Origin: a virus
Taxonomy: Duplodnaviria; Heunggongvirae; Uroviricota; Caudoviricetes
Strand: one strand, 5' to 3'
Virus record (IMG/VR): IMGVR_UViG_2703718818_000001
Coordinates: 1 to 18,526 of that record
Length of the DNA: 18,526 bases
Below, in pieces: positions 362 to 18,526 of this stretch (position 1 is its first letter; the number at the start of each line of letters is the position of its first letter). The translations under genes were made by a program, and so were the position numbers. A model generated the notes under the pieces. The model saw only the letters and a program-made list of their open reading frames with translations, made no database searches and was not told the origin of the DNA.

Positions 362-366
362 GCATG

Positions 367-4540: not shown

Positions 4541-4541
4541 G

Positions 4542-4889: not shown

Positions 4890-4920
4890 CTGTTGTCGTC
4901 AACAGGCAGCGTGCTATCAT
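4890..4920 (+). promoter_or_regulatory. Candidate parDE promoter/operator: inverted repeat CTGTTG-tcgt-CAACAG overlapping a -35-like element, with TATCAT -10-like hexamer
   Basis: Inverted repeat at 4890-4905; TATCAT at 4915-4920; ParD ATG at 4956. Operator role is inferred from the autoregulation typical of RHH antitoxins. Confidence 0.35.
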
Positions 4921-4955
4921 CGAATAGTGTTCTATCCTACTCCGTGAGGTTTACC

Positions 4956-5213: not shown

Positions 5214-5218
5214 TCTGC

Positions 5219-5518: not shown

Positions 5519-5597
5519 ACTTTTACCCACATCATTCCGGTGTTAGAATAAACCGTCTGCCCCTCTCTTACTGCGGATTCGTAGGCTATATAAATCA

Positions 5598-5633
5598 AAG
5601 ATCCCGGCTCATGTTTGTGGCGGGATCTTTTTT
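5598..5633 (+). terminator. Hairpin with T run downstream of parE (AAGATCCCG / CGGGATCTT stem, 14-nt loop, TTTTTT)
   Basis: 9-bp inverted repeat at 5598-5606 and 5621-5629, then T run to 5633. The large loop lowers confidence. Confidence 0.4.
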
Positions 5634-5720
5634 CGGCGATTTATCCCCAGCGGCAAATCGAATACACCACCAGCGCCACCGCCATTGCAATACCAACATT
5701 TGAGAAGGCCTCAGGCCAGC

Positions 5721-6251
5721 TCATTGGCGCACCTCCTTCGGCGGTTCTGGTAGCGGCATCCAGTGTGATGGTATCCACGACGCACCAGGTACTACCCACC
5801 CATCATTAGCGTCAGGATGCCCCGGGATGTAAGTCGCCCATTTCATTCGCCAGTCACCTTTCCTGTCAAACTCCCTGGCAACAAGAACGGCTGTTTTGGT
5901 ATCCGGCATTCGCTCACTACAGCTTATCCAACCATCCGGAGTTACCGGCACTGGCTTGGCGGTATAAAGCGGTGTTATATCTGCCCGAAAATTACATGCT
6001 TTATGCAGCCGCACCCACCGTTCGACTTCTGCTTTGTCAGAATACATACCAGTGAACGTGTTATATTCACGGTCAATTTGCGTGAATGTTACCTTCCACG
6101 CCACCGGCTCTGCTTCCAGAGATGCCAGTGCGATACGCAGGGAAGCCAGGATATTCCCCTGGTAATCATCAAGCCCGAAAGGAAGCTCATCACGAACGCT
6201 TTCATAATCGTTGATAGCCTGCTGCAGCCATTCTCTTGTGATAGTGCTCAT
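5721..6251 (-). CDS. Phage protein with DUF551-like C-terminal region
   Basis: 176 aa; C-terminal WISCSERMPD...WIPSHWMPLPEPP resembles DUF551 as I recall it. ATG overlaps the upstream stop (ATGA), with AAGGAGAGG upstream. Confidence 0.6.
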   Translation of the reverse strand: MSTITREWLQQAINDYESVRDELPFGLDDYQGNILASLRIALASLEAEPVAWKVTFTQIDREYNTFTGMYSDKAEVERWVRLHKACNFRADITPLYTAKPVPVTPDGWISCSERMPDTKTAVLVAREFDRKGDWRMKWATYIPGHPDANDGWVVPGASWIPSHWMPLPEPPKEVRQ

Positions 6252-6925
6252 GATTCCTCTCCTTTACCGGCTGCGGCGGCGATACGAAAAAGTTTAATGT
6301 CGCCGCTGTCTGAGTTCTGCTTACTCCAGATAAGTGACGTTTCTCGCCCGCGCTCGTTGATATGCATGAGATTTCTTTCGTCTGTAAAGCATGCAGGGAT
6401 GAAAGCTACAGGGAGTGGATAGAGGGCAACTGCATCATCACCCCATTGCTCAACTGCATATTTCTCATCGGTTGTGAACCTCGACATGAATGATGTGACG
6501 TTAGCATTCCTCATCCATGCAACTGGCTTAACGTCCCGCGCCTGCAGCTCAGCAATCCGCTTCTCTGCTGCTTCCAGCTCAACACGCAGCTTCCCTACCG
6601 TTAGCGCAATATCCTCGTTCTCCTGGTCGCGGCGTTTGATGTATTGCTGGTTTCTTTCCCGTTCATCCAGCAGCGCCAGCACGGTAGCTGGATTGGCTGC
6701 GGCGATGAATTCAGCATTGGCCTGCTGTTCCATTTGGAAATCTTCATCGAAACCGCTTTCAGGATGCGCTCCTTCAATTCTGCAAATGGGAATATATCCA
6801 GCAACTTCACGATGAATTAGCGCATCATCACCATCAAATCGTCCCTCTCCATATTCGAGCGACCACTCGCCACACGTTGCTTTTTCTGCCTTAGCACGCA
6901 ATGCCTGATAGTCAATCTTGCTCAC
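6248..6925 (-). CDS. Ead/Ea22-like protein (paralog 1)
   Basis: 225 aa. GTG start at 6925 preceded by GGAGG-CAACCA. N-terminal IDYQALRAKAEKATCGEW and NAEFIAAANPATVLALLDERE motifs are shared with the adjacent paralog. Confidence 0.6.
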   Translation of the reverse strand: MSKIDYQALRAKAEKATCGEWSLEYGEGRFDGDDALIHREVAGYIPICRIEGAHPESGFDEDFQMEQQANAEFIAAANPATVLALLDERERNQQYIKRRDQENEDIALTVGKLRVELEAAEKRIAELQARDVKPVAWMRNANVTSFMSRFTTDEKYAVEQWGDDAVALYPLPVAFIPACFTDERNLMHINERGRETSLIWSKQNSDSGDIKLFRIAAAAGKGEES

Positions 6926-7485
6926 TGGTTGCCTCCTTTGCGAAGCTCAGCGGCGAAGGCTACTGCGTGATCATGATGTTCAAGTGTGTATGCACACTCC
7001 GCAAACATCTCCACGCCCTGCGCTCGTACTTCAGCCAGGAAAGCATCGGTGGCAGGCATATTTCCTGTTGCTTTCATGGCCTCCAAGATAACCAGAACGC
7101 CATCTCGCCCAACCTCCTCAGCGATAACCTCGGTGTTGTCGCCAACAACATCGCAGAATGCCTGAACTGCTTTACGAGCAAGTGCATTCTCCGCCGCCAG
7201 CGCCACAAGATTAGCTTCCAGCTCTGCAATACGTTTGCTTTGGGCTTCCCGTTCATCCAGCAGTGCCTGTACTACTTCAGGGTTGAAAGCTGCAATAAAT
7301 TCTGCGTTGTTCTCTGCATTTTTCTGGTCATCAAAGCCAGGCCATTTGATAATGTCTCCGCAACGTTCATCCCCCGGCGTATGCACCGCATATGTATCAG
7401 TGCCCGGCGAAATGAATGCGACCCATTCGCCCTGGGTTGCCAGTTTTGCTATCTCACGTAGCGTCTGATAATTAATTTTTCTCAC
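6922..7485 (-). CDS. Ead/Ea22-like protein (paralog 2)
   Basis: Preferred start is the GTG at 7485, with the same GGAGG-CAACCA-GTGAG context as paralog 1 (the ORF track's longest start is 7512). Shares INYQTLREIAKLATQGEW and NAEFIAAFNPEVVQALLDERE. Confidence 0.6.
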   Translation of the reverse strand: MRKINYQTLREIAKLATQGEWVAFISPGTDTYAVHTPGDERCGDIIKWPGFDDQKNAENNAEFIAAFNPEVVQALLDEREAQSKRIAELEANLVALAAENALARKAVQAFCDVVGDNTEVIAEEVGRDGVLVILEAMKATGNMPATDAFLAEVRAQGVEMFAECAYTLEHHDHAVAFAAELRKGGNQ

Positions 7486-7777
7486 TGGTTGCCTCCTGGA
7501 AAATAACCGCATGTCCCAGTTTCTCCGCCAGTGCCAGTTCTGCCTTAGCGCCTGCCGACCGCTGCCAGCCTTTCAGCATGTAAATCGCATCCACGCAGCG
7601 TATCATCGCCATGCAAATATCCATGTAGTGTGGCTGTGTCAGTCCGTCCGGAAGTACTGCCGGGTTTAAAACGGTATGCCCTTCCCGTTTCAGTGCTTCT
7701 TCCGCCCTGTGAAACGCCTCACGGTTGAAATTTTCATATCCCGTCATCGGACCGGCGATATAAATTCTCACCCTCAC
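7472..7777 (-). CDS. DUF4406-family protein (nucleoside 2-deoxyribosyltransferase-like fold)
   Basis: 101 aa; N-terminal RIYIAGPMTG motif typical of DUF4406. GTG start at 7777 with AGGAGGG 7 nt upstream, overlapping the upstream stop. Confidence 0.65.
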   Translation of the reverse strand: MRVRIYIAGPMTGYENFNREAFHRAEEALKREGHTVLNPAVLPDGLTQPHYMDICMAMIRCVDAIYMLKGWQRSAGAKAELALAEKLGHAVIFQEATSEKN

Positions 7778-8055
7778 GCCTGAACCCTCCTGTCGAAATA
7801 AACGTAGTTATTCACTGCGCCCAACTTCATCCCAAACTTTTCGGCAATTTCCCGTCGGGGTACGCCACGCTGATGCAGTTGCCGCGCCAGCTCAATATCA
7901 CGCTGTGAACATTTGGCTGACTGGTGATAATCACCCCGTAACATCATGCAGATACCCAGTTCCCGCGCTTTCGTCCTGACGGCAGCCCCACTACGGCCAA
8001 TCAGACTGCCGATGCTTTCGACTGTCATCGTTCCCGCACACTGCCGGAGTATCAT
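7774..8055 (-). CDS. Hypothetical small protein with possible HTH
   Basis: The ORF track extends to 8178, but that N-terminal extension overlaps the upstream gene and is low-complexity. The in-frame ATG at 8055 gives a 93-aa product MILRQCAGTMTVESIGSLIGRSGAAVRTKARELG... Start is ambiguous (8055, 8028 or 8178). Confidence 0.4.
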   Translation of the reverse strand: MILRQCAGTMTVESIGSLIGRSGAAVRTKARELGICMMLRGDYHQSAKCSQRDIELARQLHQRGVPRREIAEKFGMKLGAVNNYVYFDRRVQA

Positions 8056-8087
8056 AATTTCCGCCCAGCGCCACTTCTTCCAGCCAC

Positions 8088-8849
8088 TCACCGCAGCAGC
8101 TCTCTGGTGGCGGTAATATCCCGGAGAATATCCCTGTGTTTGTTCAGTTCCCGCAGCGCGGCACAGACTCGCTCCCACTTCTGAACATCACTTTTCGCCC
8201 TGCGCAGCGCCAGGTTTGCCCTGCACAGGGACAGAAAAATCAGCTCATCTGCTTGCGTTTCGGTAAACGATGGCAACGACTGCACAATGTCCGCCACTGT
8301 TTCTGTTTTAATATCTTCCTGTGTTGCAGATTCCTGTACTGGTAACGCAACACCTGCTGGCTGAGGAAAGGCCTTACCATCATTTTCCGTTACCGGCACG
8401 GCTTTCGGCTCTGCTGGTAAATTATCGCCCGGCATGCAGTAACGAAATTTACCGTTCTGATTTACGCGTGCCAGGCGTCCCGTTGCGGTTACCACCGCCA
8501 ACGTGGAAGCAACCTTGCGAATGCTAACACCGAACTTATCCGCCAGTTCCTCACACGTTTTAGCCCCCTCCTGACCGATAAACTCAATCATCATGTCTGC
8601 GGTAACTTTTTGTTCGACCTCCCCGGTCAGCACATCCGGTACTTCAGACTGTTCTGGCTGCTCTTCGGTTACCCCGGATTCACCTTCGCCAGCCAGAAAC
8701 CAGATGTGACCCGCTTTATCAACAACGCCATTTCTTTTGAGTTCCCACAGTTCGTTGAGAACCTCTTCACGACTGATATCAAGCCGCTCAGCCAGTCCAA
8801 CAGAGCTGGCTTTTCCCATTGCTTTCAGTGCGTCAAAAACGGTTTCCAT
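8088..8849 (-). CDS. Hypothetical phage protein with N-terminal winged-helix-like domain (recalled as DUF1627-like)
   Basis: 253 aa. ATG at 8849 with AGGAGG 8 nt upstream. N-terminal [45 protein letters not shown]. Family name not verified. Confidence 0.55.
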
Positions 8850-8882
8850 TAAAATTTCCTCCTACAAAATCGCTTCTCAGAT

Positions 8883-9545
8883 TCAAATAAAACCAGCTGC
8901 CTTCCGGCGTTCGTATTCCTGTTTCAGCCATTCAATTGGCGTTGGCCCTTTCGGGTGTTTCGCCCCTTCCAGTTGTCGTCGCACTGGCGGAACACTCATC
9001 CCGTTACCAACATGCTTTGCCCATTTCGTCAGTTGCCGTTCCGCAAGTCGTTTTAACTCACCCTGCGTCATCTGGCGCTCAATCCCTCTGGTACGCATTT
9101 CGAGGCAGATGTGGTACAGCACAGGCTGTGGCCACGGGTATTTATCACTCCCGTCGTATCGCCAGGATTCATTGCGCCAGCGCCGGTACTCTTCCATCAC
9201 GGCATCCACCGTAAGACCAAATGGATTTGCCCCACTCTCCGAAATCAGTGCAACAAACTCAGCCAGGTCCGGGGGCCACGTTTCACCCGCCCGGCAGCGG
9301 TCCATGCACTGACGGCAGACCAGCCGGATTTGCTGTTCAGTCATCGCGCCAATCTGGGCAATCCAGAGCTTCGAAGGTGCGGCCCCGTTCTTCTGTGTCC
9401 AGCGGTTCGAATACACCTCCCCCATAAGCTCCCACAGCTTCCAGGCCGTTTCCGTTGCTGATAAATCCGTTTTCACGTTCCCACTGTTCGCGTGCTGCCC
9501 GGATTTCCTGAACTGCCCGTGATGCCGTGCCACCTGATGCTGCAT
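8883..9545 (-). CDS. Replication protein P-like (DnaB helicase loader)
   Basis: 220 aa. The C-terminal two-thirds align by eye with lambda P (GLTVDAVMEEYRRWRNESWRYDGSDKYPWPQPVLYHICLE versus lambda GLPNVSELVDMVYEYCRKRGLYPDAESYPWKSNAHYWLVTNL). ATG at 9545 has AAGGGGG 6 nt upstream. An alternative ATG at 9344 would cut the overlap with the O-like gene to 8 nt. Confidence 0.7.
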   Translation of the reverse strand: MQHQVARHHGQFRKSGQHANSGNVKTDLSATETAWKLWELMGEVYSNRWTQKNGAAPSKLWIAQIGAMTEQQIRLVCRQCMDRCRAGETWPPDLAEFVALISESGANPFGLTVDAVMEEYRRWRNESWRYDGSDKYPWPQPVLYHICLEMRTRGIERQMTQGELKRLAERQLTKWAKHVGNGMSVPPVRRQLEGAKHPKGPTPIEWLKQEYERRKAAGFI

Positions 9546-10347
9546 GGCTTACCCCCTTGCTGACTGGTTTTACCTGTGCCCTGACGTGCTGCACGTGGCG
9601 GGCAAATTTCTGCTCCCACTGAATCTGCGTGAAAACCTTCCCCTCCGCCATCCAGTAATCCCGGAATGCGGCAAGCTCTGCAGGTGTAAATTCCGGCTCA
9701 GGCAGAGCCATACCCCACACTGCTGCCCGTTGTCGAAAATCCGGCGACGGCTGCCAGACAGTGGTCATCGAAAATTTCCCGATCGGTTCGCTCAGGCCGT
9801 CCAGGTATTCAGGTTCGGCTGTCTGCAACGGCGCACCATGCGACTCACTGGTCGGAATACTCTCGCGTTCACGCACGTTATGTGTGGGGTTTAATTCTTT
9901 TAGATCTGTATCTTTATTAGTTGCTTTTGTGTTTGCGTCATGTTCAAACACAACACCAACATTTGTTTGAACACCTGTTAAATCTCTCTCTTGTTTTGTT
10001 TGAACATATACTTCCTTTCTGCTTCTTCTGGCCTGAACAGATGCTTTTCCGGCGGCTGATTTTTTGGTCAATTTTTCCCTGACTGATGCCAGATCTTCCT
10101 CAATCCGAAGATGCACCCATTCATCGCCGTTATCGCAAAAAAACTCCCGCAAGGATGGTTCCACATCAGCCCATCGCTCGTTAGTCAGACGGGAAATTTT
10201 TGCCAGCCTGTTTTTAGGTATTGGTTTCCCTGTTTGCCAGTAATTGAACATCAGCAACAAATACGCACCGTGCTCCTCTGCGGACAAATGCATGGTGTCA
10301 GCCAGGTAATCAGCTATGTACAGTTGCATGTATGGTAATGCGGCCAT
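9337..10347 (-). CDS. Replication initiation protein, O-like / DUF1376 (YdaU-like)
   Basis: Preferred ATG at 10347 with GAGG 5 nt upstream (ORF track start at 10401 is a TTG). N-terminal MAALPYMQLYIADYLADTMHLSAEEHGAYLLLMFNYWQTGKPIP is typical of DUF1376. The 3' end runs 209 nt out of frame over the P-like ORF. Confidence 0.65.
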   Translation of the reverse strand: MAALPYMQLYIADYLADTMHLSAEEHGAYLLLMFNYWQTGKPIPKNRLAKISRLTNERWADVEPSLREFFCDNGDEWVHLRIEEDLASVREKLTKKSAAGKASVQARRSRKEVYVQTKQERDLTGVQTNVGVVFEHDANTKATNKDTDLKELNPTHNVRERESIPTSESHGAPLQTAEPEYLDGLSEPIGKFSMTTVWQPSPDFRQRAAVWGMALPEPEFTPAELAAFRDYWMAEGKVFTQIQWEQKFARHVQHVRAQVKPVSKGVSHAASGGTASRAVQEIRAAREQWERENGFISNGNGLEAVGAYGGGVFEPLDTEERGRTFEALDCPDWRDD

Positions 10348-10433
10348 AATTGCCTCATCTTGTGACGAACCATCCTCTGGTGATATTCTGTGATTCCCCA
10401 ATCAACAGAATCAGCAGGGGGCTGGCATAAATA

Positions 10434-10871
10434 TCAATGCACCACAACAGACTCGCCGGATGACCCGCCGTCGCTGAAATACGCTTTCCGGTAAACGGCC
10501 TGGACAGCATCATCATGTGCATCAATTGCCGTGCTCAACGCTTCCTGCGCCGCCAGTAATGCACGGCGCTCAACAGTGTCAAAAATACTGAGGTGATAAC
10601 GCAGTTCACGCGGAAGAACAGTCAGGATAGCCGGAATTAGTGCCTGAATTTTTTCAACAGCATCAGGCGTATCCTTTTCAAGCCAGCGAAAAATATTTTG
10701 TATATTCAATCCAATACCCTCTGTCGTAGAGGTGTCATGCATTGGTGGATAAGTCATTTCAAGCTCAAAATATGCTGTCGCTATATCATCAGCGATTTTT
10801 TTGCGCCCTACCCTCGGATAAAGCAGCCACGCATTCATCGCCATGCGGATGTGCTCATGCTTGATTTTCAT
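10434..10871 (-). CDS. YdaT-like protein (cII-position regulator of Rac-type immunity regions)
   Basis: 145 aa beginning MKIKHEHI, which I recall as typical of YdaT. ATG overlaps the stop of the cro-like gene (ATGA). Confidence 0.65.
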   Translation of the reverse strand: MKIKHEHIRMAMNAWLLYPRVGRKKIADDIATAYFELEMTYPPMHDTSTTEGIGLNIQNIFRWLEKDTPDAVEKIQALIPAILTVLPRELRYHLSIFDTVERRALLAAQEALSTAIDAHDDAVQAVYRKAYFSDGGSSGESVVVH

Positions 10872-11128
10872 GAATCAACTCCCGCCGCTGCTTGTGCGTT
10901 AGCCTGATACTCAACAGGTAAACCATCGGTTGGATTAGGGTATTTATCAGGGCGCAATTCATGCGGAGTTACTCCCCAGTCAAGCGCCTCACATGCTGGT
11001 ATAACCTCCTCCGCTGGCACTCGTTTTTTAAACCACCCACTTATGGTTTGCGGTGTTTTACCAAGACGACGCCCTAATTCTGATTGGCTCATTATTGACA
11101 GGATTTTCACTTGAGTACTTTTTTGCAT
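10868..11128 (-). CDS. Cro/YdaS-like HTH regulator
   Basis: 86 aa with HTH segment SQSELGRRLGKTPQTISGW. ATG at 11128 with GGAGGG 4 nt upstream. Divergent from the repressor gene. Confidence 0.7.
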   Translation of the reverse strand: MQKSTQVKILSIMSQSELGRRLGKTPQTISGWFKKRVPAEEVIPACEALDWGVTPHELRPDKYPNPTDGLPVEYQANAQAAAGVDS

Positions 11129-11254
11129 GTTTCCCTCCGAACTTTACGATGACACCGATGATTACAAATTTAATTTTAAATTTCAACTTCTATTTGTAAT
11201 GCCACTTATCAATTTTTTCTGTAGGATCGCGGAACTAGTTTACGAGGGGTGGTG
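11129..11254. promoter_or_regulatory. Immunity-region divergent promoter/operator region (OR-like)
   Basis: 126-bp AT-rich intergenic region between divergent HTH genes. Inverted half-sites TTACAAAT (11162-11169) and ATTTGTAA (11192-11199); imperfect palindrome AAATTTAA-TT-TTAAATTT (11166-11183). Confidence 0.55.
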
Positions 11255-11647
11255 ATGATCTTTGTAAAACGCCTTCAGCAGGTGTTGCAGGAATTGAATA
11301 TAAACCAGTCAGAGCTGGGAAGACGTCTTGGTGTAAAACCCCAATCCGTGCAAGGTTGGTTGAAAGGCGTGATGCCAAGAATGGATAAACTGGAAAAATT
11401 AGCAGAGCTCTCACAACATCCCGTCCATTGGTTCTTTATGGAAGAAGAAACTCTCGGCGATAAAATGGCTGTATCCAGTAATGACAACCAACCGCAACTT
11501 ACAGAACAACAACGAAAAATCATATCGCTTTTAGATGAGTTACCTCAAAGCGACGCAGAGCAGATCATTCGTGATATGGAGCAAAAACGCGATTTCTATA
11601 AACGGAAACTTGAAGAGTTACTGCGGCAGAAAAACAAAACTGCCTGA
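11255..11647 (+). CDS. CI/RacR-like prophage repressor: HTH protein with no peptidase (S24) domain
   Basis: 130 aa from the ATG at 11255 (GAGGGG 5 nt upstream). HTH segment NQSELGRRLGVKPQSVQGW closely matches the cro-like protein's HTH. C-terminal half is charged and coiled-coil-like, with no Ser-Lys protease motifs. Confidence 0.7.
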   Translation: MIFVKRLQQVLQELNINQSELGRRLGVKPQSVQGWLKGVMPRMDKLEKLAELSQHPVHWFFMEEETLGDKMAVSSNDNQPQLTEQQRKIISLLDELPQSDAEQIIRDMEQKRDFYKRKLEELLRQKNKTA

Positions 11648-11677
11648 TGCATTCCTTTTCTGGAACGAGCATCAGGC
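11630..11677 (-). terminator. Hairpin (GCCTGATGC / GCATCAGGC, 18-nt loop) with a U-rich tail on the minus strand; candidate higBA terminator overlapping the repressor stop codon
   Basis: 9-bp inverted repeat at 11642-11650 and 11669-11677; plus-strand A-rich run at 11630-11641. Confidence 0.35.
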
Positions 11678-11693
11678 AAATGACTAGCAGATT

Positions 11694-12053
11694 TTATAAT
11701 CCAACCAGGCTTTCCAGGGGGATACCAAATTGATTATGAAGACGGCGAATCATTGGTAACGTAAGGCTTCTGGTACCATTCAACACCTCATAAACCCGAT
11801 TTTTTTTCCCAATTGCGGGTTCCAAATCTTTCACAGTCAGCCCCTGCTGTTCCATGCGAAATCTTATAGCTTCAATTGGGGATGGTGGCTCAATGGGATA
11901 ATGTTTTTTTTCATATTCCTCTATTAGCAAACACATCACCTCAAAAAAATCCCCCTCAGGCGTGTCAATTTCGGGCTCATTGTCGAACATGGGTTCAACA
12001 GCACGCAACGCGGCTTCATAATCTTGCTCTGTACGAATAGGTTTGATGTTCAT
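11694..12053 (-). CDS. higA: HigA-like antitoxin (C-terminal XRE-type HTH)
   Basis: 119 aa. C-terminal GLTVKDLEPAIGKKNRVYEVLNGTRSLTLPMIRRLHNQFGIP is an XRE-type HTH. ATG lies 2 nt after the stop of the upstream toxin gene, giving the toxin-first order typical of HigBA. Confidence 0.75.
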   Translation of the reverse strand: MNIKPIRTEQDYEAALRAVEPMFDNEPEIDTPEGDFFEVMCLLIEEYEKKHYPIEPPSPIEAIRFRMEQQGLTVKDLEPAIGKKNRVYEVLNGTRSLTLPMIRRLHNQFGIPLESLVGL

Positions 12054-12055
12054 GC

Positions 12056-12358
12056 TTACTCCAGTTCGATGGTATCAGCATCAATAGCATCGTATTCCTT
12101 GTGGTTTCCGATGAATTTAACAAATACCCATCCTCGCTGATACGCAATTGCAACAATTAAACGGTAATGATTACCTTTTATGTTGAATACCACGCGCCGG
12201 TTTTTCAATATACTGGCCGTTCGGTATTGTGCCTTAATGTCTGCTGGGCTTTTCCAGTCAGCTTTTGCCGCCTCATCCACCCATGCCCTTAGCGGTTGTT
12301 CTGCATCAGGATTCTCCGCCCAAAAATCCCTGAGTGTTTTAACTGAGATAATCTTCAT
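12056..12358 (-). CDS. higB: HigB-like toxin (RelE/ParE superfamily mRNA interferase)
   Basis: 100 aa from the ATG at 12358. C-terminal ...NIKGNHYRLIVAIAYQRGWVFVKFIGNHKEYD matches the HigB pattern as I recall it. The ORF track's 240-aa version (to 12778) is an upstream open-frame extension. Confidence 0.75.
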   Translation of the reverse strand: MKIISVKTLRDFWAENPDAEQPLRAWVDEAAKADWKSPADIKAQYRTASILKNRRVVFNIKGNHYRLIVAIAYQRGWVFVKFIGNHKEYDAIDADTIELE

Positions 12359-12369
12359 AACTGTATAGT

Positions 12370-12386
12370 AGTCCCATTTTGGGACT
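12370..12386. promoter_or_regulatory. Perfect inverted repeat AGTCCCA-TTT-TGGGACT, 12-28 nt upstream of the higB start; candidate HigA operator
   Basis: 7-bp arms at 12370-12376 and 12380-12386. Confidence 0.4.
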
Positions 12387-12401
12387 GATGCAACAGCTCG
12401 C

Positions 12402-12456
12402 AATTGCAAATTTAATAATAAACATGTTGACCAGTTAAATTTTAATTTGTAAATTG
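12402..12456 (+). promoter_or_regulatory. pL-like early-left promoter (TTGACC-17 nt-TAAATT) flanked by operator-like repeats related to those in the cI/cro region
   Basis: -35 at 12427-12432, -10 at 12450-12455. AATTGCAAATTTAAT (12402-12416) differs by one base from ATTACAAATTTAAT in the OR-like region, and ATTTGTAA recurs at 12445-12452. Confidence 0.5.
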
Positions 12457-12632
12457 TATCCATAAACCCACCCCGCCCCACAGAACGCAGGGCAATACTT
12501 CGAGTTACCCGGCAGTGGTCAGGGGTTAAGTAGCCAGCCTGAGGCGTATGAACATGACGGCGGGGATTACGTTTAACTATGCAGCAGGTTTTTTGTTCCG
12601 CTACCCCGGCGTTAAGGGGAAATGAGGTCAAC

Positions 12633-12785
12633 ATGGATACGCTCAATCTTGGCAACAACGAATCTCTGGTATGCGGTGTGTTCCCTAACCAGGACGGCAC
12701 GTTTACCGCGATGACGTATACCAAAAGTAAAAAGTTTAAAACCGAAGCTGGCGCGCGTCGCTGGTTAGCCAGAAACACTAACTGA
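12633..12785 (+). CDS. Small hypothetical protein (50 aa), first ORF of the early-left transcript; possibly YdaF/DUF1391-like
   Basis: ATG at 12633 with GAGG 5 nt upstream (the ORF track start at 12579 is a longer in-frame extension). Translation MDTLNLGNNESLVCGVFPNQDGTFTAMTYTKSKKFKTEAGARRWLARNTN. Family name is a weak recollection. Confidence 0.4.
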   Translation: MDTLNLGNNESLVCGVFPNQDGTFTAMTYTKSKKFKTEAGARRWLARNTN

Positions 12786-12822
12786 TTAGCACCAGTAAAA
12801 ACAGGTTGCCACTGGTTAATTT

Positions 12823-12842
12823 ACCCTGAAAAGTCAGGGTAT
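12823..12842 (+). other. Perfect hairpin TACCCTGA-AAAG-TCAGGGTA with no U tract; boxB-like RNA element or processing site
   Basis: 8-bp arms with a 4-nt loop, about 40 nt after the 50-aa ORF stop. The boxB comparison is speculative. Confidence 0.3.
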
Positions 12843-13579
12843 AACACGAAAGCGCACGGCGAAGCTCTTTCCCTTAGAAGGCTTGTCGTTAGATTTCTTC
12901 GAACGTGCGCTTCCGGTTGTGGCAATCCGCGAAATGGCGCGGCGGTAAGTATGGCTGGGGTTTCCTCCATTGCTCCAGAAAATGCACCGGGTTGTCAGGT
13001 TGACCATACGATTAAGTGACAGCCCCGCCACAATACCCATGTGTAGTCTTTGGTGGCATCAGTTCTACTCCGTGACTGCTCTGCCACCCTTTTTAAAGTG
13101 AATTTTGTGATGCGGTGAATGCGGCTAAGCGCACGCGGAACAGTTAAAACCGTAAAGTGGTCTTTTACGGGGCGTAACGGGCATACTTCTGTATTCCGGC
13201 GTTAATTGTTAACTGGTTAACGTCACCTGGAGGCACCAGGCACTGCATCGACAAAGTTCACTTCGGTGATGAAAGGTAAGAGAAAATGTTGAATGTAGCT
13301 ATTGAAAACCAGAACGGGTGGAATTATAGTGCACCTGCACCTCATAAAGCGGGTGCCGGGATTGCTACCCCGATGTTCATCATGGCGCATAACCGCGCTC
13401 AGGCGGTTTTTTTATGCGTAATGCACAGCCACATTCAGATTATGGTGGGGCGTGCAGGGCAGCCGCAAGGCTGGCCGGGTTCCATGATGACCGGTTGTAG
13501 CAACCCTGTGCGTCTCACCACCCATGAGATTGCTACCTCCGGTGGTGAGTTAATGAAATTCATCATGGAGGCTGCCATC

Positions 13580-14137
13580 ATGGCTACTATCCCTGCCCTT
13601 TCTCACCCTGAAATTACTATCGCCAATGGGCGTGCTGTTACATCCTCTTTAGCTGTTGCCGAGTATTTCCGGAAACCACACAAAGATGTACTGGCAAAAA
13701 TTTCACGTCTAGACTGTTCAGCAGAATTCACTGAGCGAAATTTTTCGCCCAGTGAATATACCGACTCAACCGGGCGCAAACTCCCTATGTACCAAATCAC
13801 CAAAAACGGCTTCGTTTTCCTGGTGATGGGCTTCACCGGCAAAAAAGCCGCTGCATTTAAAGAAGCCTACATCGCTGAGTTCGATCGCATGGAGAAAGAA
13901 CTGCGCCAGAATAACGCCCCGTCTCCCGACAAAATGATTCACGGGGACGGACGTACCCTGGTTATCCGTCTCGACGAACACGGCAATATCAAATTCACTG
14001 AAACCGTTCCTGATGGTGCAATGGTCTGCACCCTGGATACCTTCCAGTTTTATCTGGAGAAACAAGGCTGGACTCTTGTAAACCGGAGCGCAATTAAAAA
14101 TATGACTGTGGAGCAATTACTAAAAATTCATTGTTGA
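13580..14137 (+). CDS. Rha-family phage regulatory protein
   Basis: Conserved Rha-like N-terminal segment ...SSLAVAEYFRKPHKDVLAKISRL... Preferred start is the ATG at 13580 (GGAGG 8 nt upstream), with 13553 as an alternative. The ORF track's start at 13286 adds an implausible N-terminal extension. Confidence 0.7.
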   Translation: MATIPALSHPEITIANGRAVTSSLAVAEYFRKPHKDVLAKISRLDCSAEFTERNFSPSEYTDSTGRKLPMYQITKNGFVFLVMGFTGKKAAAFKEAYIAEFDRMEKELRQNNAPSPDKMIHGDGRTLVIRLDEHGNIKFTETVPDGAMVCTLDTFQFYLEKQGWTLVNRSAIKNMTVEQLLKIHC

Positions 14138-14147
14138 GGACGCGATA

Positions 14148-14336
14148 ATGGAAACGTTATTACCAAACGTTAATACGTCTGAAGGGTGTTTTGATATTGG
14201 TATTCTGCTCAGTAACCGGGAGTTTACTGAAGATGCCATTAAGATGAGAAAATATGAGCCTTATCTTCTCAATGATAATTCCATACTCTCCAGAATTGCC
14301 CTTCTTAAACTTGGTATTTTCGGAGGGCAGCAGTGA
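14148..14336 (+). CDS. Small hypothetical protein (62 aa), AT-rich by eye
   Basis: ATG at 14148 with GAGGA 7 nt upstream, 10 nt after the Rha stop. No family recognised. Confidence 0.4.
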   Translation: METLLPNVNTSEGCFDIGILLSNREFTEDAIKMRKYEPYLLNDNSILSRIALLKLGIFGGQQ

Positions 14337-14521
14337 CTTCTGCATTTGCACTGGTGATGACGGTTTTTCTTATAACGGGTGAGCCACAGAATGTGATTAC
14401 CGGAATTTATGCCAGTAAAGAATCATGCCTCCGTGCAAGAGACGAGCAAAAAATTTCTGGCGAATGCCTCCCGTTAAAAAAAGTATCGCTGTACCTGAAT
14501 AACGAAATACCGGCTGGATAA
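14333..14521 (+). CDS. Small hypothetical membrane-anchored protein (62 aa, N-terminal hydrophobic segment)
   Basis: GTG start at 14333 overlapping the upstream stop (GTGA), with GGAGGG 5 nt upstream. Hydrophobic stretch AFALVMTVFLITG near the N-terminus. Confidence 0.4.
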   Translation: MTSAFALVMTVFLITGEPQNVITGIYASKESCLRARDEQKISGECLPLKKVSLYLNNEIPAG

Positions 14522-14613
14522 TCCACCAGCCATATTAACGCCATACCCGTTGATTAAGCATGCCAGCAATGGCAGGGGTTCGTACAACCTTAAAATAGTT
14601 ATGAGGTTTATCC

Positions 14614-17052
14614 ATGAGCACTGATAAAGAAGAATTTTCGCTATATTGCGAAGCAAAAAATGACAAGGTCAGAAAACGCCTTGGGATTAAAGGAGGTTTT
14701 TACTGGACTACAGCAAAAAAATTATCTGTTGCCATCTCACGGTGCGTTGTTGCAATGGACGAGGCAGGCTACGACGCTGATGATTTCAAAAAACCTGTCC
14801 GCGTCCATTTCCCCGTTGTGAATGACCTTCCACCGGAAGGCGTGTTTGATACCGAATTCTGCAACCGCTATGAAAAAGGCGGGGAAGATGGCATCACAAT
14901 GATATTTATAGCGCCTTCCCCCTCAGTTCAGGACAAACCAGCCAGCACTGACAATACCAACGTCAATGGCGAAGACATGGCTGAGATTGAGGATAATATG
15001 CTCCTGCCGATTTCCGGTCAGGAACTGCCCATTCGCTGGCTTGCGCAACATGGCAGCGAAAAACCGGTAACGCACGTTTCACGGGAAGAACTTCAGGCAT
15101 TACATATCGCACGAGCTGAAGAACTGCCGGCTGTTACTGCCCTGGCTATTTCCCACAACACAAAGCTGCTCGACCCGCTGGAGATTCGCGACCTTCACAA
15201 ACTGGTACGCGACACAGACAAAGTTTTCCCTAATCCCGTTAATTCCAGTCTGGGGTTAATGACTGCTTTTTTCGAAGCATACCTGGACGCTGACTATACC
15301 GATCGAGGTCTGCTGACAAAAGAGTGGATGAAAGGAAATCGTGTTTCTCGCATCACCCGCACGGCTTCCGGTGCAAATGCCGGTGGCGGAAATAAAACCG
15401 ATCGTAATCCTGACTTAGTACACACCCTCGATACTCTGGATGTGGAGGCTGCAGCAGCCACACTTCCGATGGATTTTAATATTTATGAAATACCCGTGAG
15501 CGTTTATCGTCGCGCAAAAGAAATCGTCCTGAAAAAAGAAAGTCCGTTCAGGGAATGGTCCGCAGCACTTCGCGCAACCCCTGGTATCCTGGACTATTCC
15601 CGCGCAGCTATTTTTGCACTTATCCGGAGCGCCCACCCTGAGTTTTATCACTACCCGGGACGCCTTCAGGGGTATATCAATGCCAACCTGACAGAAACTG
15701 ATCACGAGAATCCCACAGCTGAAACGCTCATGGCTGCCCGGCATACACCGGAAAAAGATATCCTGGAAGAAATTAACGGCGGACTGGCTGCTGAGTGCAA
15801 AACAGAAGAAGAAAAAAATGATGAAGAAAACCCGCAACCATCTGGCGCAATGGCAGATGAACAGGCAACGGCTGAAACAATGGCAGCGGATACAGTTGAA
15901 CATCATCAGGACCCGCAGCCGCTGGATGACAAGTCACAGGTAAAAGTTACTGCTGAAGAAGTAAATAAAATTATGGAGGCAGCAGACATCAGTCGACCAG
16001 ATGCCGACAAATTGCTTGCCGCTTCTCGTGGTGAGTTTGTTGAAGGGATTAGCGACCCGAATGATTCGAAATGGGTTAAGGGGATTGAAACCTGCGATTC
16101 TGTGAACCAGAACCAGCAAGAAACGGAACAGAACGGTCAGAAAGCGGAACAAAACAGCCCAAATGCGTTACAAAACGAGCCAGAAACGAAACAACCTGAA
16201 CCAGTAGTGCAACAGGAAGAGGAAAAAGTTTGTACCGCATGCAATCAGACTGGTGGTGGTAACTGCCCTGATTGTGGCGCAGTGATGGGGGACGCAACCT
16301 ACCAGGAGACATTCAACGAAGAAAGCCAGGATGAAGCCCGGGAAAAAGATCCGGAGGAAATGGAAAGTGCCGGACTCCCGAACAAGGAGTGCACCGAAGG
16401 CGATCAACATGCCAATGGCAATAATGAAACAGGCGAGACAGCAAATCCCTTAATTAAGGTGAACGGTCATCGTGAAATCACATCCACCAGCAGGTTATGG
16501 CACCATCTGATGATTGACCTTGAAACAATGGGCAAAAATCCTGACGCACCAATAGCCTCAATAGGCGCTGTATTTTTCGATCCACAAACCGGAGAGCAGG
16601 GGCCTGAATTCAGCAAAATAATTGATATGGGTACATGTGGCGGCACTGTAGACATAAGCACCATCGAATGGTGGCTTCAACGCTCTGGCGAAGCCCGTGC
16701 CGCCATTTTAGCTGATCGAATACCGCTTGATGATGCGCTTTTACAATTACGGGAATTTATAGACGAAAACTCCGGTGAGTTTTTTGTTCAGGTCTGGGGA
16801 AATGGAGCCAACTTCGACAACGTGATTTTACGCCGTTCATATGAACGGCAGGAGATCCCCTGCCCGTGGCGTTACACCAATGATCGTGATGTAAGAACGA
16901 TTGTTGCCCTGGGGCTGGTGATGGATTTCGATGCTCGAAGTGTCATCACATTTGAGGGTGAACGCCATAATGCCCTGCACGATGCGCGTTACCAGGCAAA
17001 ATACGTTTCAGCTATCTGGCAAAAACTGTTCCCGAATCAGGCTGATTTTTAA
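14614..17052 (+). CDS. Large multidomain protein (812 aa): N-terminal region of unknown function, acidic low-complexity linker, Cys4 zinc-ribbon-like motif, C-terminal DEDDh-type 3'-5' exonuclease domain
   Basis: ATG at 14614 with GAGG upstream. DEDDh motifs: IDLETMG (residues 634-640), [10 protein letters not shown] (730-739), HNALHD (785-790). C540-x2-C543-x7-C551-x2-C554 at nt 16231-16275. E/Q/N/D-rich segment at about residues 360-535. Confidence 0.8.
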
Positions 17053-17118
17053 TGTTCAACCCATATCGCCGCCCACAAGCTATAGTGGCGGCGGTCATGC
17101 TGTAAGGCACGTGACCAC

Positions 17119-17370
17119 ATGTACGAATTAACTCTATCGCCAGCAGAAATTCAAGAGATCACGAGATACGAACGGTATACAAAACAGCAACAACAGTTAA
17201 GGTTGCACGGTATCCCATTTGTACCCGGTCCTAAAAACGAACCAATAGTTCTTCGCAGTGATGTCCCGCGCGGACTGACTGCGATACCGAAAGTATCTGA
17301 ACTGGTTTCTGCTGACCCCGATTTTGAGGCGCTGAACAATGGGAAGACCAAGAAAAAACAAAAAAGATAA
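17119..17370 (+). CDS. xis: Excisionase (lambda Xis-like)
   Basis: 83 aa. Begins MYELTL (lambda Xis begins MYLTL, recalled), with a basic C-terminal tail NNGKTKKKQKR. The 3' end overlaps the int start by 32 nt, as in lambda xis-int. Confidence 0.6.
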   Translation: MYELTLSPAEIQEITRYERYTKQQQQLRLHGIPFVPGPKNEPIVLRSDVPRGLTAIPKVSELVSADPDFEALNNGKTKKKQKR

Positions 17371-18358
17371 TGCACTACCGCCACGTGTTAGATCGAATGG
17401 TTACAGTTACGTATGGAAACCCGAAGGAAGCACAAAAACTATAGGGCTAGGAAGAGTGCGGGAAACCAGCATAGCTAAAGTCTGGCAGAATTATGAACTG
17501 GAAAAAGCAAAACGCCACAACATAATGACCGTCGCTAAATTATGGCACATGTTTATGGATTCCCCCGCATTTACAGAACTGGCCCCCAGAACCCAAAAAG
17601 ATTATCGGCAACATCAGAGGGCGTTACTGGCAGTCTTCGGAAAAGTACTGGCTGATAATGTAAAAATTGAGCAGGTAAGAATTTTCATGGATAAACGGGG
17701 GATTGAGAGCAAGACCCAGGCAAACCATGAACTGGCAAGTCTCAGTCGTGTATACGGGTGGGGATATGAGCGTGGATATGTGAAGAATAACCCATGCAAA
17801 GGAGTCAGGAAATTTACGCTTAAAGCCCGCACTGTTTACATCACAGATGAACAGTATGCGGCGATATATGCGGAAGCAATACCACAGTTACGCATTGCAA
17901 TGGAGATATCCTATCTTTGTGCGGCAAGACTCGGTGATGTGCTCGAGCTGAAATGGCAGGATATTATGGATAAAGGAATCTACATTGAGCAAAACAAGAC
18001 CGGCACCAAACAAATCAAGGAATGGTCTCCACGATTACGAACCGCGATCCAGTTAGCCAGAAATGTATCTTCAGGCACATGTGAATATGTGATCAACACA
18101 ACCAAGGGCGGGAAGGTCATAGCTAAAACGCTAAACAACTGGTGGAACCAGGCTAAACACGCAGCCGAGAAAAAATCCGGCGTCCCGTTTGGGTGCAATT
18201 TCCATGACATAAAAGCCAAAGGAATATCAGATTACGAAGGAAGCAGTCGCGACAAACAGATTTTCAGTGGACATAAAACAGAAAATCAGGTGTTGATTTA
18301 TGATCGTAAAACAAAAATCACGCCGACACTGGATTTGCCACTTGTGGTCAGCAAGTAG
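17339..18358 (+). CDS. int: Tyrosine site-specific integrase, lambda Int family
   Basis: 339 aa. N-terminal MGRPRKNKKDNALPPRVRSNGYSYVWKPEGSTKTIGLG parallels the lambda Int arm-binding domain; C-terminal ...HDIKAKG...SGHKTENQVLIYDR carries the catalytic His and Tyr region. Confidence 0.9.
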   Translation: MGRPRKNKKDNALPPRVRSNGYSYVWKPEGSTKTIGLGRVRETSIAKVWQNYELEKAKRHNIMTVAKLWHMFMDSPAFTELAPRTQKDYRQHQRALLAVFGKVLADNVKIEQVRIFMDKRGIESKTQANHELASLSRVYGWGYERGYVKNNPCKGVRKFTLKARTVYITDEQYAAIYAEAIPQLRIAMEISYLCAARLGDVLELKWQDIMDKGIYIEQNKTGTKQIKEWSPRLRTAIQLARNVSSGTCEYVINTTKGGKVIAKTLNNWWNQAKHAAEKKSGVPFGCNFHDIKAKGISDYEGSSRDKQIFSGHKTENQVLIYDRKTKITPTLDLPLVVSK

Positions 18359-18499
18359 GCAACTCAGGAAATTTTCTGGCAAAAAAGACTTGGTATACTA
18401 ACTCTGAAAGCTCCCTAACAGCCTGATTTTTCTAGGTGTTAAGTTTGGTTAATTTTTCAGCTACTTTTCGTATTGCATTGATTTTTATTTATTTTTCAT

Positions 18500-18526
18500 C
18501 GGTCTTGAAAACCGGCGACCCGAAAG
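18500..18526 (+). tRNA. 3' fragment of a tRNA-Ser(UGA)-like gene, from the anticodon stem onward, truncated by the window edge; probable attachment-site core
   Basis: CGGTCTTGAAAACCGGCGACCCGAAAG matches the anticodon stem-loop (loop CTTGAAA, anticodon TGA) and the start of the variable arm of E. coli tRNA-Ser(UGA) as I recall it. The bases immediately upstream diverge from the tRNA. Confidence 0.55.

Follow-up and report, generated by a model that had tools for sequence, protein, structure and literature searches.

What does a prophage gain from a pair of small antisense genes placed between its repressor and its early-left promoter? The question is raised by the immunity region of a virus of the class Caudoviricetes (IMG/VR record IMGVR_UViG_2703718818_000001), of which positions 1 to 18,526, that is, a stretch of 18,526 nucleotides, form the window considered here. 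A preliminary description of this DNA had proposed a HigB/HigA-like toxin-antitoxin cassette, acquired at the immunity locus as an addiction or abortive-infection module. The reading that we hold with fair confidence is that of an intact and autonomous type II HigBA toxin-antitoxin cassette of ~0.7 kb (roughly 11688-12400), carried as accessory cargo by a lambdoid E. coli prophage of the YdaS/YdaT-DicA type, within its immunity module, and most likely repaid by retention of the prophage. Comparison with relatives provides a parts list of a promoter, an operator, two genes, and a terminator. The HigBA pair is real and probably functional, and its relatives suggest an ordinary member of a known family; the slot that it occupies is already known to collect such cargo, and its biochemistry is expected to be ordinary.

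The immunity region around the cassette contains a prophage repressor gene (11255..11647, plus strand) that encodes 130 aa with an HTH only and no peptidase domain, in the position held elsewhere by DicA and PaaR2. Its product matches HTH_3 (E 6.6e-9), the DicA subfamily weakly, and PHROG transcriptional repressor families. Divergent from it, on the minus strand, lie a Cro-like YdaS gene (10868-11128) and, beyond that, a CII-like YdaT gene (10434-10871). OR-like operators occupy the interval between the Cro-like gene and the repressor (11161..11200, no strand assigned) and comprise the repeat families D2, I2, and I3 together with an operator core. On the other side of the cassette, OL-like operators, again with repeats and operator core, are found at 12403-12422 on the plus strand, with an inverted copy at 12435-12452, and a PL-like promoter (TTGACC-17-TAAATT) extends over 12427-12455 on the plus strand. 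Within the window, the operator core TTRCAAATT has just three occurrences, the first two at 11162 and 12404 and the third, on the minus strand, at 12444-12452. The cassette is enclosed by the OR and OL of the repressor and fills the space between the end of the repressor gene (11647) and OL/PL (12403-12455). From PL, a plus-strand early-left unit runs through DUF1391/ydfA, DicF, Rha, and dicB onward. The cassette had been described as antisense and embedded in a plus-strand operon. It is on the minus strand and convergent with the repressor gene, but it sits between two separate plus-strand units.

The first gene of the cassette, higB (12358..12056, minus strand), encodes a 100-aa toxin of the RelE superfamily that belongs to the PF09907 HigB family. 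The match to the HigB_toxin profile scores 113.7 bits with a cut-off of 27 (E 4.8e-33) and covers profile positions 1-74 of 74, and the 3,061 homologues of the protein are all PF09907. Residues 1-93 match the solved HigB structures 5IFG, 5YCL, and 6KML (E 3e-7), and the motifs VFN..GN..R and HKEYD, common with HigB of E. coli K-12, are kept. An AF2 model of moderate confidence (pLDDT 76.8) shows a beta-alpha-alpha-alpha-beta4 topology. When it was submitted to Foldseek, the top matches were the HigB chains 5IFG_A and 6KML_A (TM 0.65), followed by RelE, YoeB, and ParE chains; the predicted fold is RelE/BECR-like. The 100-aa reading of higB is taken to be correct because all homologues are ~100 aa long and start at the corresponding MKII... 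ATG (12358). A 240-aa GTG-started ORF (12056-12778) was rejected, as its extension crosses PL and ydfA and is absent from every homologue, and two overlapping plus-strand ORFs (11876-12040 and 12180-12368) were set aside with no support for either. K-12 HigB cuts translated mRNA only (PMC2814082; PMC8138530; PMC11980606), and by analogy with it (PMC2814082), ribosome-dependent mRNA cleavage may be expected of the toxin in the window.

After a gap of 2 nt, higB is followed by higA (12053..11694, minus strand), which encodes an antitoxin of 119 aa, toxin-binding in its N-terminal region and ending in an XRE HTH. This HTH (residues 63-115) matches HTH_3 of Pfam (E 4.3e-6), and residues 6-112 match HigA of E. 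coli K-12 (5IFG_B, E 3e-9). A Shine-Dalgarno sequence, GGAG (12059..12062, minus strand), can be read 5 nt before the higA ATG, within the last codons of higB. HigA ends at its HTH, and no third gene follows; the next feature is a terminator at 11679-11630. The inverted order, with the toxin gene first, is the defining feature of HigBA systems (PMC2814082) and is the order found here. The coordinates agree with the earlier account of a 100-aa ORF followed 2 nt later by a 119-aa ORF with a C-terminal XRE HTH, and the profile search suggested in that account placed the toxin in PF09907 HigB_toxin and the antitoxin in HTH_3; an NCBIfam HMM search returned no match for either HigB or HigA. Both genes are under purifying selection, with dN/dS at or below 0.08 for higB against its homologues and pN of 0.05-0.14 for higA, synonymous sites being saturated in both.

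For both proteins, sequence and structure comparisons alike rank the HigBA pair of E. coli K-12 (YgjN/YgjM; PDB 5IFG, 6KML, 5YCL) first, and the preliminary assignment to HigB and HigA holds. The K-12 pair is likewise toxin-first and combines a PF09907 toxin with an antitoxin of the same layout, toxin-binding at the N-terminus and XRE HTH at the C-terminus, although the identity is only 28% for HigB and 33% for HigA (BLASTP, E 7e-17). Identification as HigBA-type is supported by the Pfam assignment of both proteins, their full-length matches to K-12 HigB and HigA, the predicted fold, the toxin-first order, and a conserved promoter palindrome. Toxicity, its neutralisation, DNA binding by the antitoxin, and lability of the antitoxin would follow from what is known of characterised relatives.

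The palindrome AGTCCCA-TTT-TGGGACT, reported earlier upstream of the toxin start, lies exactly at 12370-12386 (no strand), 12-28 nt upstream of the higB ATG. This perfect 7-3-7 repeat is unique in the window, where only 0.06 matches would be expected by chance even with 2 mismatches allowed, and it is a putative HigA operator. It fills the spacer of a putative higBA promoter (12365..12393, minus strand) with a -35 hexamer TTGCAT (12393..12388), a 17-nt spacer, and a -10 hexamer TACTAT (12370..12365). The higB ATG starts 7 nt past the -10 hexamer, and higB has no Shine-Dalgarno sequence comparable to that of higA. A strict consensus promoter scan did not call this promoter, the hexamers of which match the consensus at 7/12 positions. 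For this reason, the putative promoter, PhigB, is argued from conservation alone. The palindrome core GTCCC-N5-GGGAC is kept in 10 sequence variants of the prophage module, and homologues from four genera, in E. coli, Salmonella, Klebsiella, and Xenorhabdus and on plasmids, have a palindrome at position -28. What is conserved in the promoter is TTG in the -35 hexamer, TAnnAT in the -10 hexamer with positions 3-4 free to vary, a 17-nt spacer, and a distance of 6-7 nt to the ATG. The same geometry recurs in the 10 prophage variants, a Salmonella prophage, and the plasmid, Klebsiella, and Xenorhabdus homologues.

This conserved geometry, with a palindrome in the spacer, 6-7 nt to the ATG, and no Shine-Dalgarno sequence, argues for autorepression by HigA and for a higB mRNA that is probably leaderless. 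The sequence evidence for a palindromic operator, through which HigA would regulate its own operon, is strong, and higBA of K-12 is autorepressed by HigA (PMC2814082; PMC8138530; PMC11980606). Both systems have 7-3-7 promoter palindromes (GTTGCCA-ATC-TGGCAAC in K-12). Nevertheless, the K-12 operon belongs to the chromosome and not to a phage, its -10 lies between two palindromes, and its leader contains a purine-rich (GAAGA) Shine-Dalgarno-like stretch, whereas the operon in the window has one palindrome, located in the spacer, and a higB gene without leader or Shine-Dalgarno sequence. Plasmid and chromosomal homologues show a second palindrome at about -57. It is missing from the E. coli prophage version and from the Salmonella one, both of which have repressor-operator sequence there instead. 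Two details were not found described for this branch of HigB: the promoter geometry common to several genera, which would imply a leaderless toxin mRNA, and the loss of the distal operator beside a phage operator.

At its other end, the cassette is closed by an intrinsic terminator (11630..11679, minus strand), composed of a hairpin (11679..11640) and a U-tract (11639..11630), that overlaps the stop codon and the last codons of the repressor gene. Its stem pairs 11641-11650 with 11669-11678 and contains an inner helix of 4-5 bp; the repressor stop TGA (11645-11647) falls within the 5' arm of the hairpin. The folding energy is -23.5 to -26 kcal/mol (z about -3.8). A hairpin with a U-rich tail at the repressor stop codon had been noted before and is confirmed in position, but its strand had been misread. 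The U-rich tail GUUUUGUUUUUCUG is the complement of 11630-11639, on the minus strand, while the plus strand past the hairpin reads AAUGACUAGCAG, with no U-tract. Since the U-tract is on the minus strand, the hairpin terminates higBA and not the repressor transcript. A standard terminator scan reported no sites. As the stem is long and composite and is interrupted by an internal mismatch, the region was rescanned with a custom ViennaRNA procedure, which found this hairpin and, within 11600-12480, no second strong terminator-like element on either strand. The inner GGAACGA core of the hairpin likewise occurs downstream of related repressors that are not accompanied by higBA.

The distribution of the cassette was followed in complete genomes and viral contigs. 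It is present in 148 of 5,426 complete E. coli genomes and in 22 viral contigs, always tied to the same immunity type. An identical set of 148 genomes holds both the cro-repressor segment and the whole module. In all 22 of the 22 close viral contigs, cro, the repressor gene, and higBA are kept together, whereas the flanking ydaT and ydfA sides are variable. Thousands of other prophages share homology from ~12465 onward, just beyond PL. In E. coli prophages of like architecture, namely two of O157 (L006 and L007) and Qin of K-12, the slot is empty, as it is in a Sodalis relative (L039) with a 71%-identical repressor. Elsewhere it holds PaaA2-ParE2 (L045), PaaA2 with other cargo (L042), or higBA (L036); the PaaA2 gene that follows a 72%-identical relative of the repressor in the window is an orphan. 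These relatives came from a protein database and contig look-ups; a scan of genome contigs with the repressor protein found no relative, and megablast against a phage collection matched the ydfA flank only and not the cassette.

A comparison of related prophages at this junction, proposed earlier, thus returned higBA, empty slots, and other cargo, and the idea of an acquired cassette agrees with a position between the repressor gene and OL/PL that is empty or otherwise filled in relatives. The toxin does have HigB/RelE-fold matches, and the cassette is not universal at its position, so that neither observation counts against the earlier reading. By position and variable presence, the cassette is accessory cargo (a "moron") of the lambdoid repressor-to-PL hotspot; its own terminator is clear, and its own promoter is suggested by the conserved geometry. 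It is a clean example of the repressor-PL interval of lambdoid prophages acting as a slot for toxin-antitoxin or defence modules. A single repressor family can be accompanied by higBA (antisense), by PaaA2 with or without ParE2 (sense), by other defence-like genes, or by nothing.

The PaaA2-ParE2 example of L045 lies in the same genomic frame as the cassette of the window. In paaR2-paaA2-parE2 of the cryptic prophage CP-933P of E. coli O157:H7 (PMC8630535), a type II pair occupies the same slot of a YdaS/YdaT-type immunity region. The toxin belongs to the ParE family, the antitoxin has no DNA-binding domain, and the genes are co-transcribed with the repressor gene on the same strand and regulated by the repressor. 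In contrast, the pair in the window is antisense, relies on an operator, a promoter, and a terminator of its own, and encodes a DNA-binding antitoxin. Assignment to a PaaR2-type, repressor-controlled tripartite system was rejected on account of the opposite strand, the HTH of HigA, and the separate operator.

The following mechanism can be proposed. A weak sigma-70 promoter (-35 TTGCAT, -10 TACTAT) would drive a bicistronic higB-higA mRNA, the 5' end of which would lie at or beside the higB AUG, leaving the message probably leaderless. A leaderless higB would be poorly translated, whereas higA has its GGAG Shine-Dalgarno sequence. The N-terminal part of HigA would bind HigB, and a dimer of its C-terminal HTH would bind the 17-bp palindrome in the spacer and repress the operon. 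Transcription would stop at the hairpin and U-tract overlapping the repressor stop codon. When the supply of HigA ends, the more stable HigB would cut mRNA in the ribosomal A site and arrest growth.

Such a device would most likely pay off by keeping the prophage, and its immunity module in particular, in the cell through post-segregational arrest. The closest relatives of the pair (HigB about 89-91% and HigA about 93% protein identity) are found on non-mobilizable E. coli and Salmonella phage-plasmids of ~90-97 kb (e.g., NZ_CP066033.1). This placement of relatives at about 90% protein identity was counted toward addiction. Their higBA has the same proximal palindrome and -10 as the operon in the window, but it belongs to an extrachromosomal prophage and has two palindromes, and in NZ_CP066033.1, unlike in the window, a 22-nt leader with a Shine-Dalgarno sequence precedes higB. 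Two published observations were also counted toward addiction: PaaA2-ParE2 of the same slot stabilises a mini-F plasmid (PMC8630535), and higBA of Rts1 causes post-segregational growth arrest (PMC10899753). A difficulty for this role is that an integrated prophage would need to be lost frequently before addiction could be of consequence. A defence role is favoured by the slot itself, which is best known for abortive-infection systems (rexAB, bstA, and HigBAC), and by matches to the PADLOC models of PD-Lambda-2.

It is possible, if on balance doubtful, that the same module was selected for phage exclusion, so that infection would deplete HigA and the freed HigB would cut mRNAs and abort the infection, protecting lysogens as rexAB, bstA, and HigBAC do. 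The interval between the repressor and N/PL is a documented defence hotspot of prophages (PMC8585504; bioRxiv 10.1101/2024.02.24.581848). Lambda rexAB and BTP1 bstA (PMC8585504) are lysogen-expressed cargo of this hotspot; nevertheless, their proteins are unrelated to HigBA, they are transcribed with the repressor, and they act by abortive infection and not as a RelE-type toxin-antitoxin pair. Another comparison is offered by HigBAC of E. coli NT1F31 and of Stx phages of the BP-4795/H-19B type, in which a 42%-identical HigB of the same Pfam family, a longer HigA (43% identical in the N-terminal region and HTH), and a SecB-like chaperone hold the same variable locus, which lies downstream of the repressor. 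HigBAC of the BP-4795/H-19B type defends against lambda-vir (bioRxiv 10.1101/2024.02.24.581848). However, its three genes lie on the repressor strand, its antitoxin has 218 aa with a C-terminal extension, and its chaperone senses a phage tail protein; BP-4795 encodes a 218-aa HigA and a PD-T4-9_C chaperone. Membership in HigBAC was rejected because the HigA of the window has 119 aa and ends at the HTH, with no ChAD extension and no chaperone gene.

The second defence system that resembles the cassette is PD-lambda-2 (Vassallo et al. 2022, PMC9519451). The PADLOC models PD-Lambda-2_A and PD-Lambda-2_B match the HigB/HigA pair strongly, at E 1e-40 and 2e-42, but component B is an Xre-peptidase fusion with a profile length of 402, of which only positions 1-119 were matched. 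The peptidase part and the third gene are both absent here, and defence by PD-lambda-2 requires component C (PMC9519451). Membership in this system was likewise rejected. Phage exclusion would have to operate without the phage-sensing parts of these relatives, as the ChAD extension, chaperone, peptidase domain, and third gene are all missing. In addition, activation of type II toxin-antitoxin systems reportedly takes at least 1 hour, which is longer than the phage cycle (PMC10899753), and the nearest relatives reside on phage-plasmids, for which maintenance is the expected role.

It is unlikely, in our judgement, that the cassette is wired into the lysis-lysogeny switch. According to this explanation, the repressor bound at OL-left (12403-12422) would modulate the adjacent divergent higBA promoter, with OL-left standing in for the distal HigA operator of non-prophage homologues, and/or unterminated repressor transcripts would run antisense through higA-higB, and expression would shift on induction. 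OL-left lies at a distance of 9 bp, and the -35 of PL at one of 33 bp, from the higB -35 (12388-12393), no plus-strand terminator is found between the repressor gene and the cassette, and PaaR2-PaaA2-ParE2 is a precedent for a toxin-antitoxin pair under switch control (PMC8630535). Moreover, in the prophage versions repressor-operator sequence lies where plasmid and chromosomal homologues have their distal palindrome (about -57), but loss of that palindrome could simply mark an insertion breakpoint. The argument is purely positional, and the opposite orientation makes joint expression with the repressor less likely. Since the cassette brings an operator, a promoter, a terminator, and a DNA-binding antitoxin of its own, it requires no regulator from elsewhere. 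The link to the lysogenic switch suggested in the preliminary description is, with the higB -35 only 9 bp from a repressor operator, only plausible.

A stronger form of this coupling, which we consider decidedly unlikely, would be that in prophage HigBA, OL-left replaces the distal HigA operator and, combined with a leaderless higB, allows the toxin-antitoxin balance to be read out from the lysogenic switch. If this were true, lysogeny with the repressor bound would set the module one way, and once the repressor was lost, whether by induction or because the immunity module was replaced, PL would fire divergently and PhigB would be reset. The module would then police the immunity cassette itself and not the whole prophage.

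That the cassette is an inactive relic, or consists of chance or misannotated ORFs, is highly improbable and close to refuted: the NCBIfam search was without a match and the promoter is weak compared with the consensus, but both ORFs are full length against their homologues and keep the K-12 HigB motifs, purifying selection is strong, the Pfam match has an E of 4.8e-33, and 136 genomes contain the cassette intact at an identity of 99% or more. An autonomous cassette that favours prophage retention is the reading that we prefer. Its carriers include many non-O157 EHEC strains (O26, O103, O111, and O121), and a module that stabilises or protects such prophages would for this reason be of some practical interest.

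The cassette is a canonical two-gene HigBA module of the PF09907 branch. As the preliminary description had it, both genes are on the minus strand in toxin-first order: higB (100 aa) runs from its ATG at 12358 to the stop codon at 12056, and higA (119 aa, 12053 to 11694) begins 2 nt past the higB stop. The HMM check of both ORFs was run. The 100-aa protein covered the Pfam HigB_toxin profile (PF09907) end to end (E 4.8e-33), and Pfam placed an XRE-type HTH at residues 63-115 of the 119-aa protein. Among all solved structures, E. coli/Shigella HigB was the top sequence match for residues 1-93 of the toxin, and HigA was the top match for residues 6-112 of the antitoxin; pairwise identity to the K-12 proteins is 28% for HigB and 33% for HigA. 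The AlphaFold model of the toxin (pLDDT 76.8) was best matched by 5IFG chain A (HigB; TM 0.65), followed by RelE, YoeB and ParE chains. Both genes are under strong purifying selection, with saturated synonymous sites, pN of 0.05-0.14 and dN/dS of at most 0.08 where computable, and they are intact in every carrier inspected. Among the carriers listed, RefSeq names the toxin "type II toxin-antitoxin system HigB family toxin" in all and labels the antitoxin HigA in only some. The HMMs of NCBIfam release 20 gave no match for either protein, and phrog_5734, the PHROGs family of the toxin, is labelled "unknown function". These are small annotation gaps.

The window spans one half of a lambdoid prophage, from the integrase to Q. 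To the left of the cassette, the replication genes (DUF1376/DnaT-like, P), a CII-like YdaT gene (10434-10871) and a Cro-like YdaS gene (10868-11128) are on the minus strand, and the gene of a 130-aa, HTH-only repressor (11255-11647) is on the plus strand. To the right, DUF1391/ydfA, DicF (13038-13089), the isrK and C4 RNAs, an Ash/Rha gene, dicB, the exonuclease and the integrase are all on the plus strand. The cassette had been placed inside a plus-strand operon; instead, it separates the repressor gene from the PL-like early-left unit, each a plus-strand unit of its own. The early-left unit has a good PL-like promoter, TTGACC-17-TAAATT, at 12427-12455, which is overlapped by operator repeats. 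Repressor-type operator repeats are confined to two places: 11161-11200, between the Cro-like gene and the repressor gene, and the region right of the cassette, at 12403-12422 (OL-left) and, inverted, at 12435-12452. The 18.5 kb contain three copies of the operator core TTRCAAATT, all of them within these sites. With operators on both sides, higBA is therefore enclosed by the immunity module; in lambda, the same position is held by rexAB.

Homologues of the window's own repressor are the sharpest test of acquisition. Beside a 74%-identical repressor, Salmonella prophage L036 holds the same antisense higBA in the repressor-to-PL slot (HigA 89%, HigB 80%). In Salmonella prophage L042 (repressor 72% identical), the slot holds an orphan PaaA2 antitoxin, a TM2 gene and an RmrT/RmrA-like pair, and in Sodalis L039 (repressor 71% identical), it is empty, the repressor stop and the PL -35 being only about 200 nt apart. 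In prophages of the same architecture with other repressors (O157:H7 L006 and L007, K-12 Qin), ydfA comes directly after the repressor gene, and another E. coli prophage of the same frame has the classical paaR2-paaA2-parE2 arrangement. Given this presence, absence and replacement among relatives, the slot is variable and the cassette is accessory cargo, and the earlier view of it as acquired at the immunity locus is borne out. Its left junction is at about 11688-11693, where alignment with relatives stops, and its right junction falls in the gap that separates the higB -35 from OL-left (about 12394-12402). The Salmonella prophages L042-L044 (4454-7256) carry a multi-cargo version of the slot: past the repressor, the PaaA2-like antitoxin stands without a ParE gene, the TM2-domain gene is on the opposite strand, and the pair matches PADLOC RmrT/RmrA (Xre-peptidase M78).

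Though accessory, the cassette is stably linked to this immunity type. Of 5,426 complete E. coli genomes, 148 have the cro-repressor segment, and likewise 148 have at least 80% of the 1.8-kb segment including higBA. In the 22 viral contigs with a 97-100% identical HigB, the cro gene, the repressor gene and higBA are always together, and the ydaT and ydfA flanks alternate between about 100% and about 70-90% identity. Homology to thousands of other E. coli prophages starts at about 12465, just past PL. This mosaic boundary is sharp: only the 148 genomes have the stretch that runs from the Cro-like gene to PL, and the sequence to the right of PL (ydfA, DicF onward) is 80-95% identical in more than 4,700 of the 5,426. 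HigB and HigA of the window are nearer to phage-plasmid copies (about 89-93% protein identity) than to the Salmonella copy in L036, which still has the same repressor linkage and junction layout. This hints that phage-plasmids and lambdoid prophages have exchanged the coding part, or that captures at this one site were independent.

The palindrome AGTCCCA-TTT-TGGGACT reported upstream of higB is present exactly at 12370-12386, and the anatomy first described is correct. The palindrome's single occurrence in the window compares with a chance expectation of 0.06, even if two mismatches are tolerated. Ahead of higB, the minus strand reads TTGCAT, C, AGTCCCAAAATGGGACT, ACTATACAGTT, ATG. The putative -35 (TTGCAT, 12393..12388) and -10 (TACTAT, 12370..12365) would be separated by a 17-nt spacer that is nearly all palindrome, and the ATG begins 7 nt past the -10 without a Shine-Dalgarno sequence; higA has GGAG 5 nt ahead of its ATG. 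The higBA hexamers are weak, and a consensus promoter scan called none there; conservation supports them as a candidate promoter. Ten module variants keep the -35 TTG, the GTCCC-N5-GGGAC core, the -10 T/A/A/T and the distance to the ATG, with changes in -10 positions 3-4 and the palindrome centre. The Salmonella prophage layout is TTGATG / 17 / TACACT / 7 nt / ATG, and homologues on small plasmids and on one Klebsiella and one Xenorhabdus chromosome share it, each with AGTCCC-N5-GGGACT at -28. A single phage-plasmid version differs by a 22-nt insertion ahead of higB, a leader with a Shine-Dalgarno sequence. Across window 12359-12400 and the regions upstream of higB in comparison loci L047, L048, L049, L051, L003, L004 and L036, the geometry is fixed (-35, 17-nt palindrome spacer, -10, 6-7 nt, ATG, without Shine-Dalgarno), which suggests that a leaderless toxin mRNA is a family trait of this HigB subfamily.

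The 7-3-7 format is also seen in K-12 higBA, which has palindromes (GTTGCCA-ATC-TGGCAAC) around the -10 and is repressed by HigA (PMC2814082; PMC8138530). From the conserved geometry and the K-12 autorepression, we infer that HigA on 12370-12386 would block RNA polymerase, that a leaderless or nearly leaderless higB mRNA would keep toxin translation below that of the antitoxin despite the toxin-first order, and that transcription would end at a terminator at 11679-11630. Plasmid and chromosomal homologues have a second, distal palindrome centred near -50. It is missing from both repressor-adjacent prophage versions (the E. coli window and Salmonella), which have repressor-operator sequence there instead; in the window, OL-left lies between the divergent -35 hexamers, with a gap of 9 bp to that of higB. 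This replacement is the sole concrete observation favouring a coupling to the lysogenic switch, and the loss may merely reflect the insertion breakpoint.

The predicted terminator is a hairpin that pairs 11641-11650 with 11669-11678 (-23.5 to -26 kcal/mol, z about -3.8). Its overlap with the repressor stop codon was noted correctly, but its strand was not: the U-tract follows on the minus strand only (GUUUUGUUUUUCUG; the plus strand reads AAUGACUAGCAG). In a custom scan of both strands over 11600-12480, it was the sole strong intrinsic terminator, and the higBA transcript would therefore end on reaching the 3' end of the convergent repressor gene; the scan gave no obvious stop for repressor transcripts running antisense into higA. 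The surroundings of the hairpin, including a conserved GGAACGA core, are homologous in relatives without higBA, and thus the hairpin comes from the 3' flank of the repressor and was not brought by the cassette. The U-tract is encoded by the last repressor codons, K-N-K-T-A (within 11630-11647). Codons for a C-terminal K/R-N-K-P-A are likewise found in relatives without higBA, and the terminator tail therefore looks co-opted from existing sequence, not imported.

HigB of the PF09907 family cuts mRNA that is being translated; HigA both neutralises the toxin and acts as the operon's repressor (PMC2814082; PMC11980606). By analogy, the same activities would be expected of the cassette. Retention of, or addiction to, the prophage is a tentative reading of its role. 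The closest relatives (about 90% protein identity) are on non-mobilizable 90-97 kb phage-plasmids with capsid and tail genes. PaaA2-ParE2, which elsewhere occupies this slot, makes a mini-F plasmid more stable (PMC8630535), and Rts1 higBA causes post-segregational arrest (PMC10899753). Moreover, the cassette is wholly linked to one immunity module and flanked by recombination-prone conserved sequence. Phage exclusion appears somewhat less likely, though the two roles are not mutually exclusive. The slot is a known defence hotspot that holds rexAB and bstA (PMC8585504), and PADLOC PD-lambda-2 models match both proteins. In BP-4795/H-19B-type Stx phages, the slot is occupied by a HigB of 42% identity together with a lengthened HigA and a SecB-like chaperone, and HigBAC systems of this type abort infection by lambda-vir (bioRxiv 10.1101/2024.02.24.581848). 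However, the cassette is without a chaperone, ChAD extension, peptidase domain or third gene. These sensing parts of exclusion systems are absent, and we therefore lean slightly to retention.

Toxin-antitoxin modules in this slot have already been published (PaaR2-PaaA2-ParE2, HigBAC); a literature search found no paper on this specific cassette. Particular to it are the antisense, fully autonomous layout squeezed between the repressor gene and OL, the terminator built on the repressor's last codons, and the conserved promoter geometry implying a leaderless toxin mRNA. In phage BP-4795 (L002, 3501-4842), three genes on the cI strand lie between cI and N, encoding the 42%-identical HigB, a 218-aa HigA-like protein and a 134-aa match to the SecB-like chaperone PD-T4-9_C. 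This trio is the HigBAC system of H-19B/BP-4795-type Stx phages; in most deposited records, it is either unannotated or given only as "transcriptional regulator" or "hypothetical protein".

Further to the right in the window, Rfam places isrK and C4 antisense RNA (13337-13413, 13438-13525) after DicF, inside the 5' part of a long Ash+Rha ORF (13286-14137). This layout resembles the P1/P7 immI-like or Gifsy isrK-antirepressor module. The repressor is without a LexA-like peptidase domain, and prophage induction may therefore use an antirepressor instead of repressor cleavage. At the Q-proximal end, a full-length match to the STnc100 sRNA family (168 bits, 362-570, minus strand) adjoins a DNA methyltransferase gene.
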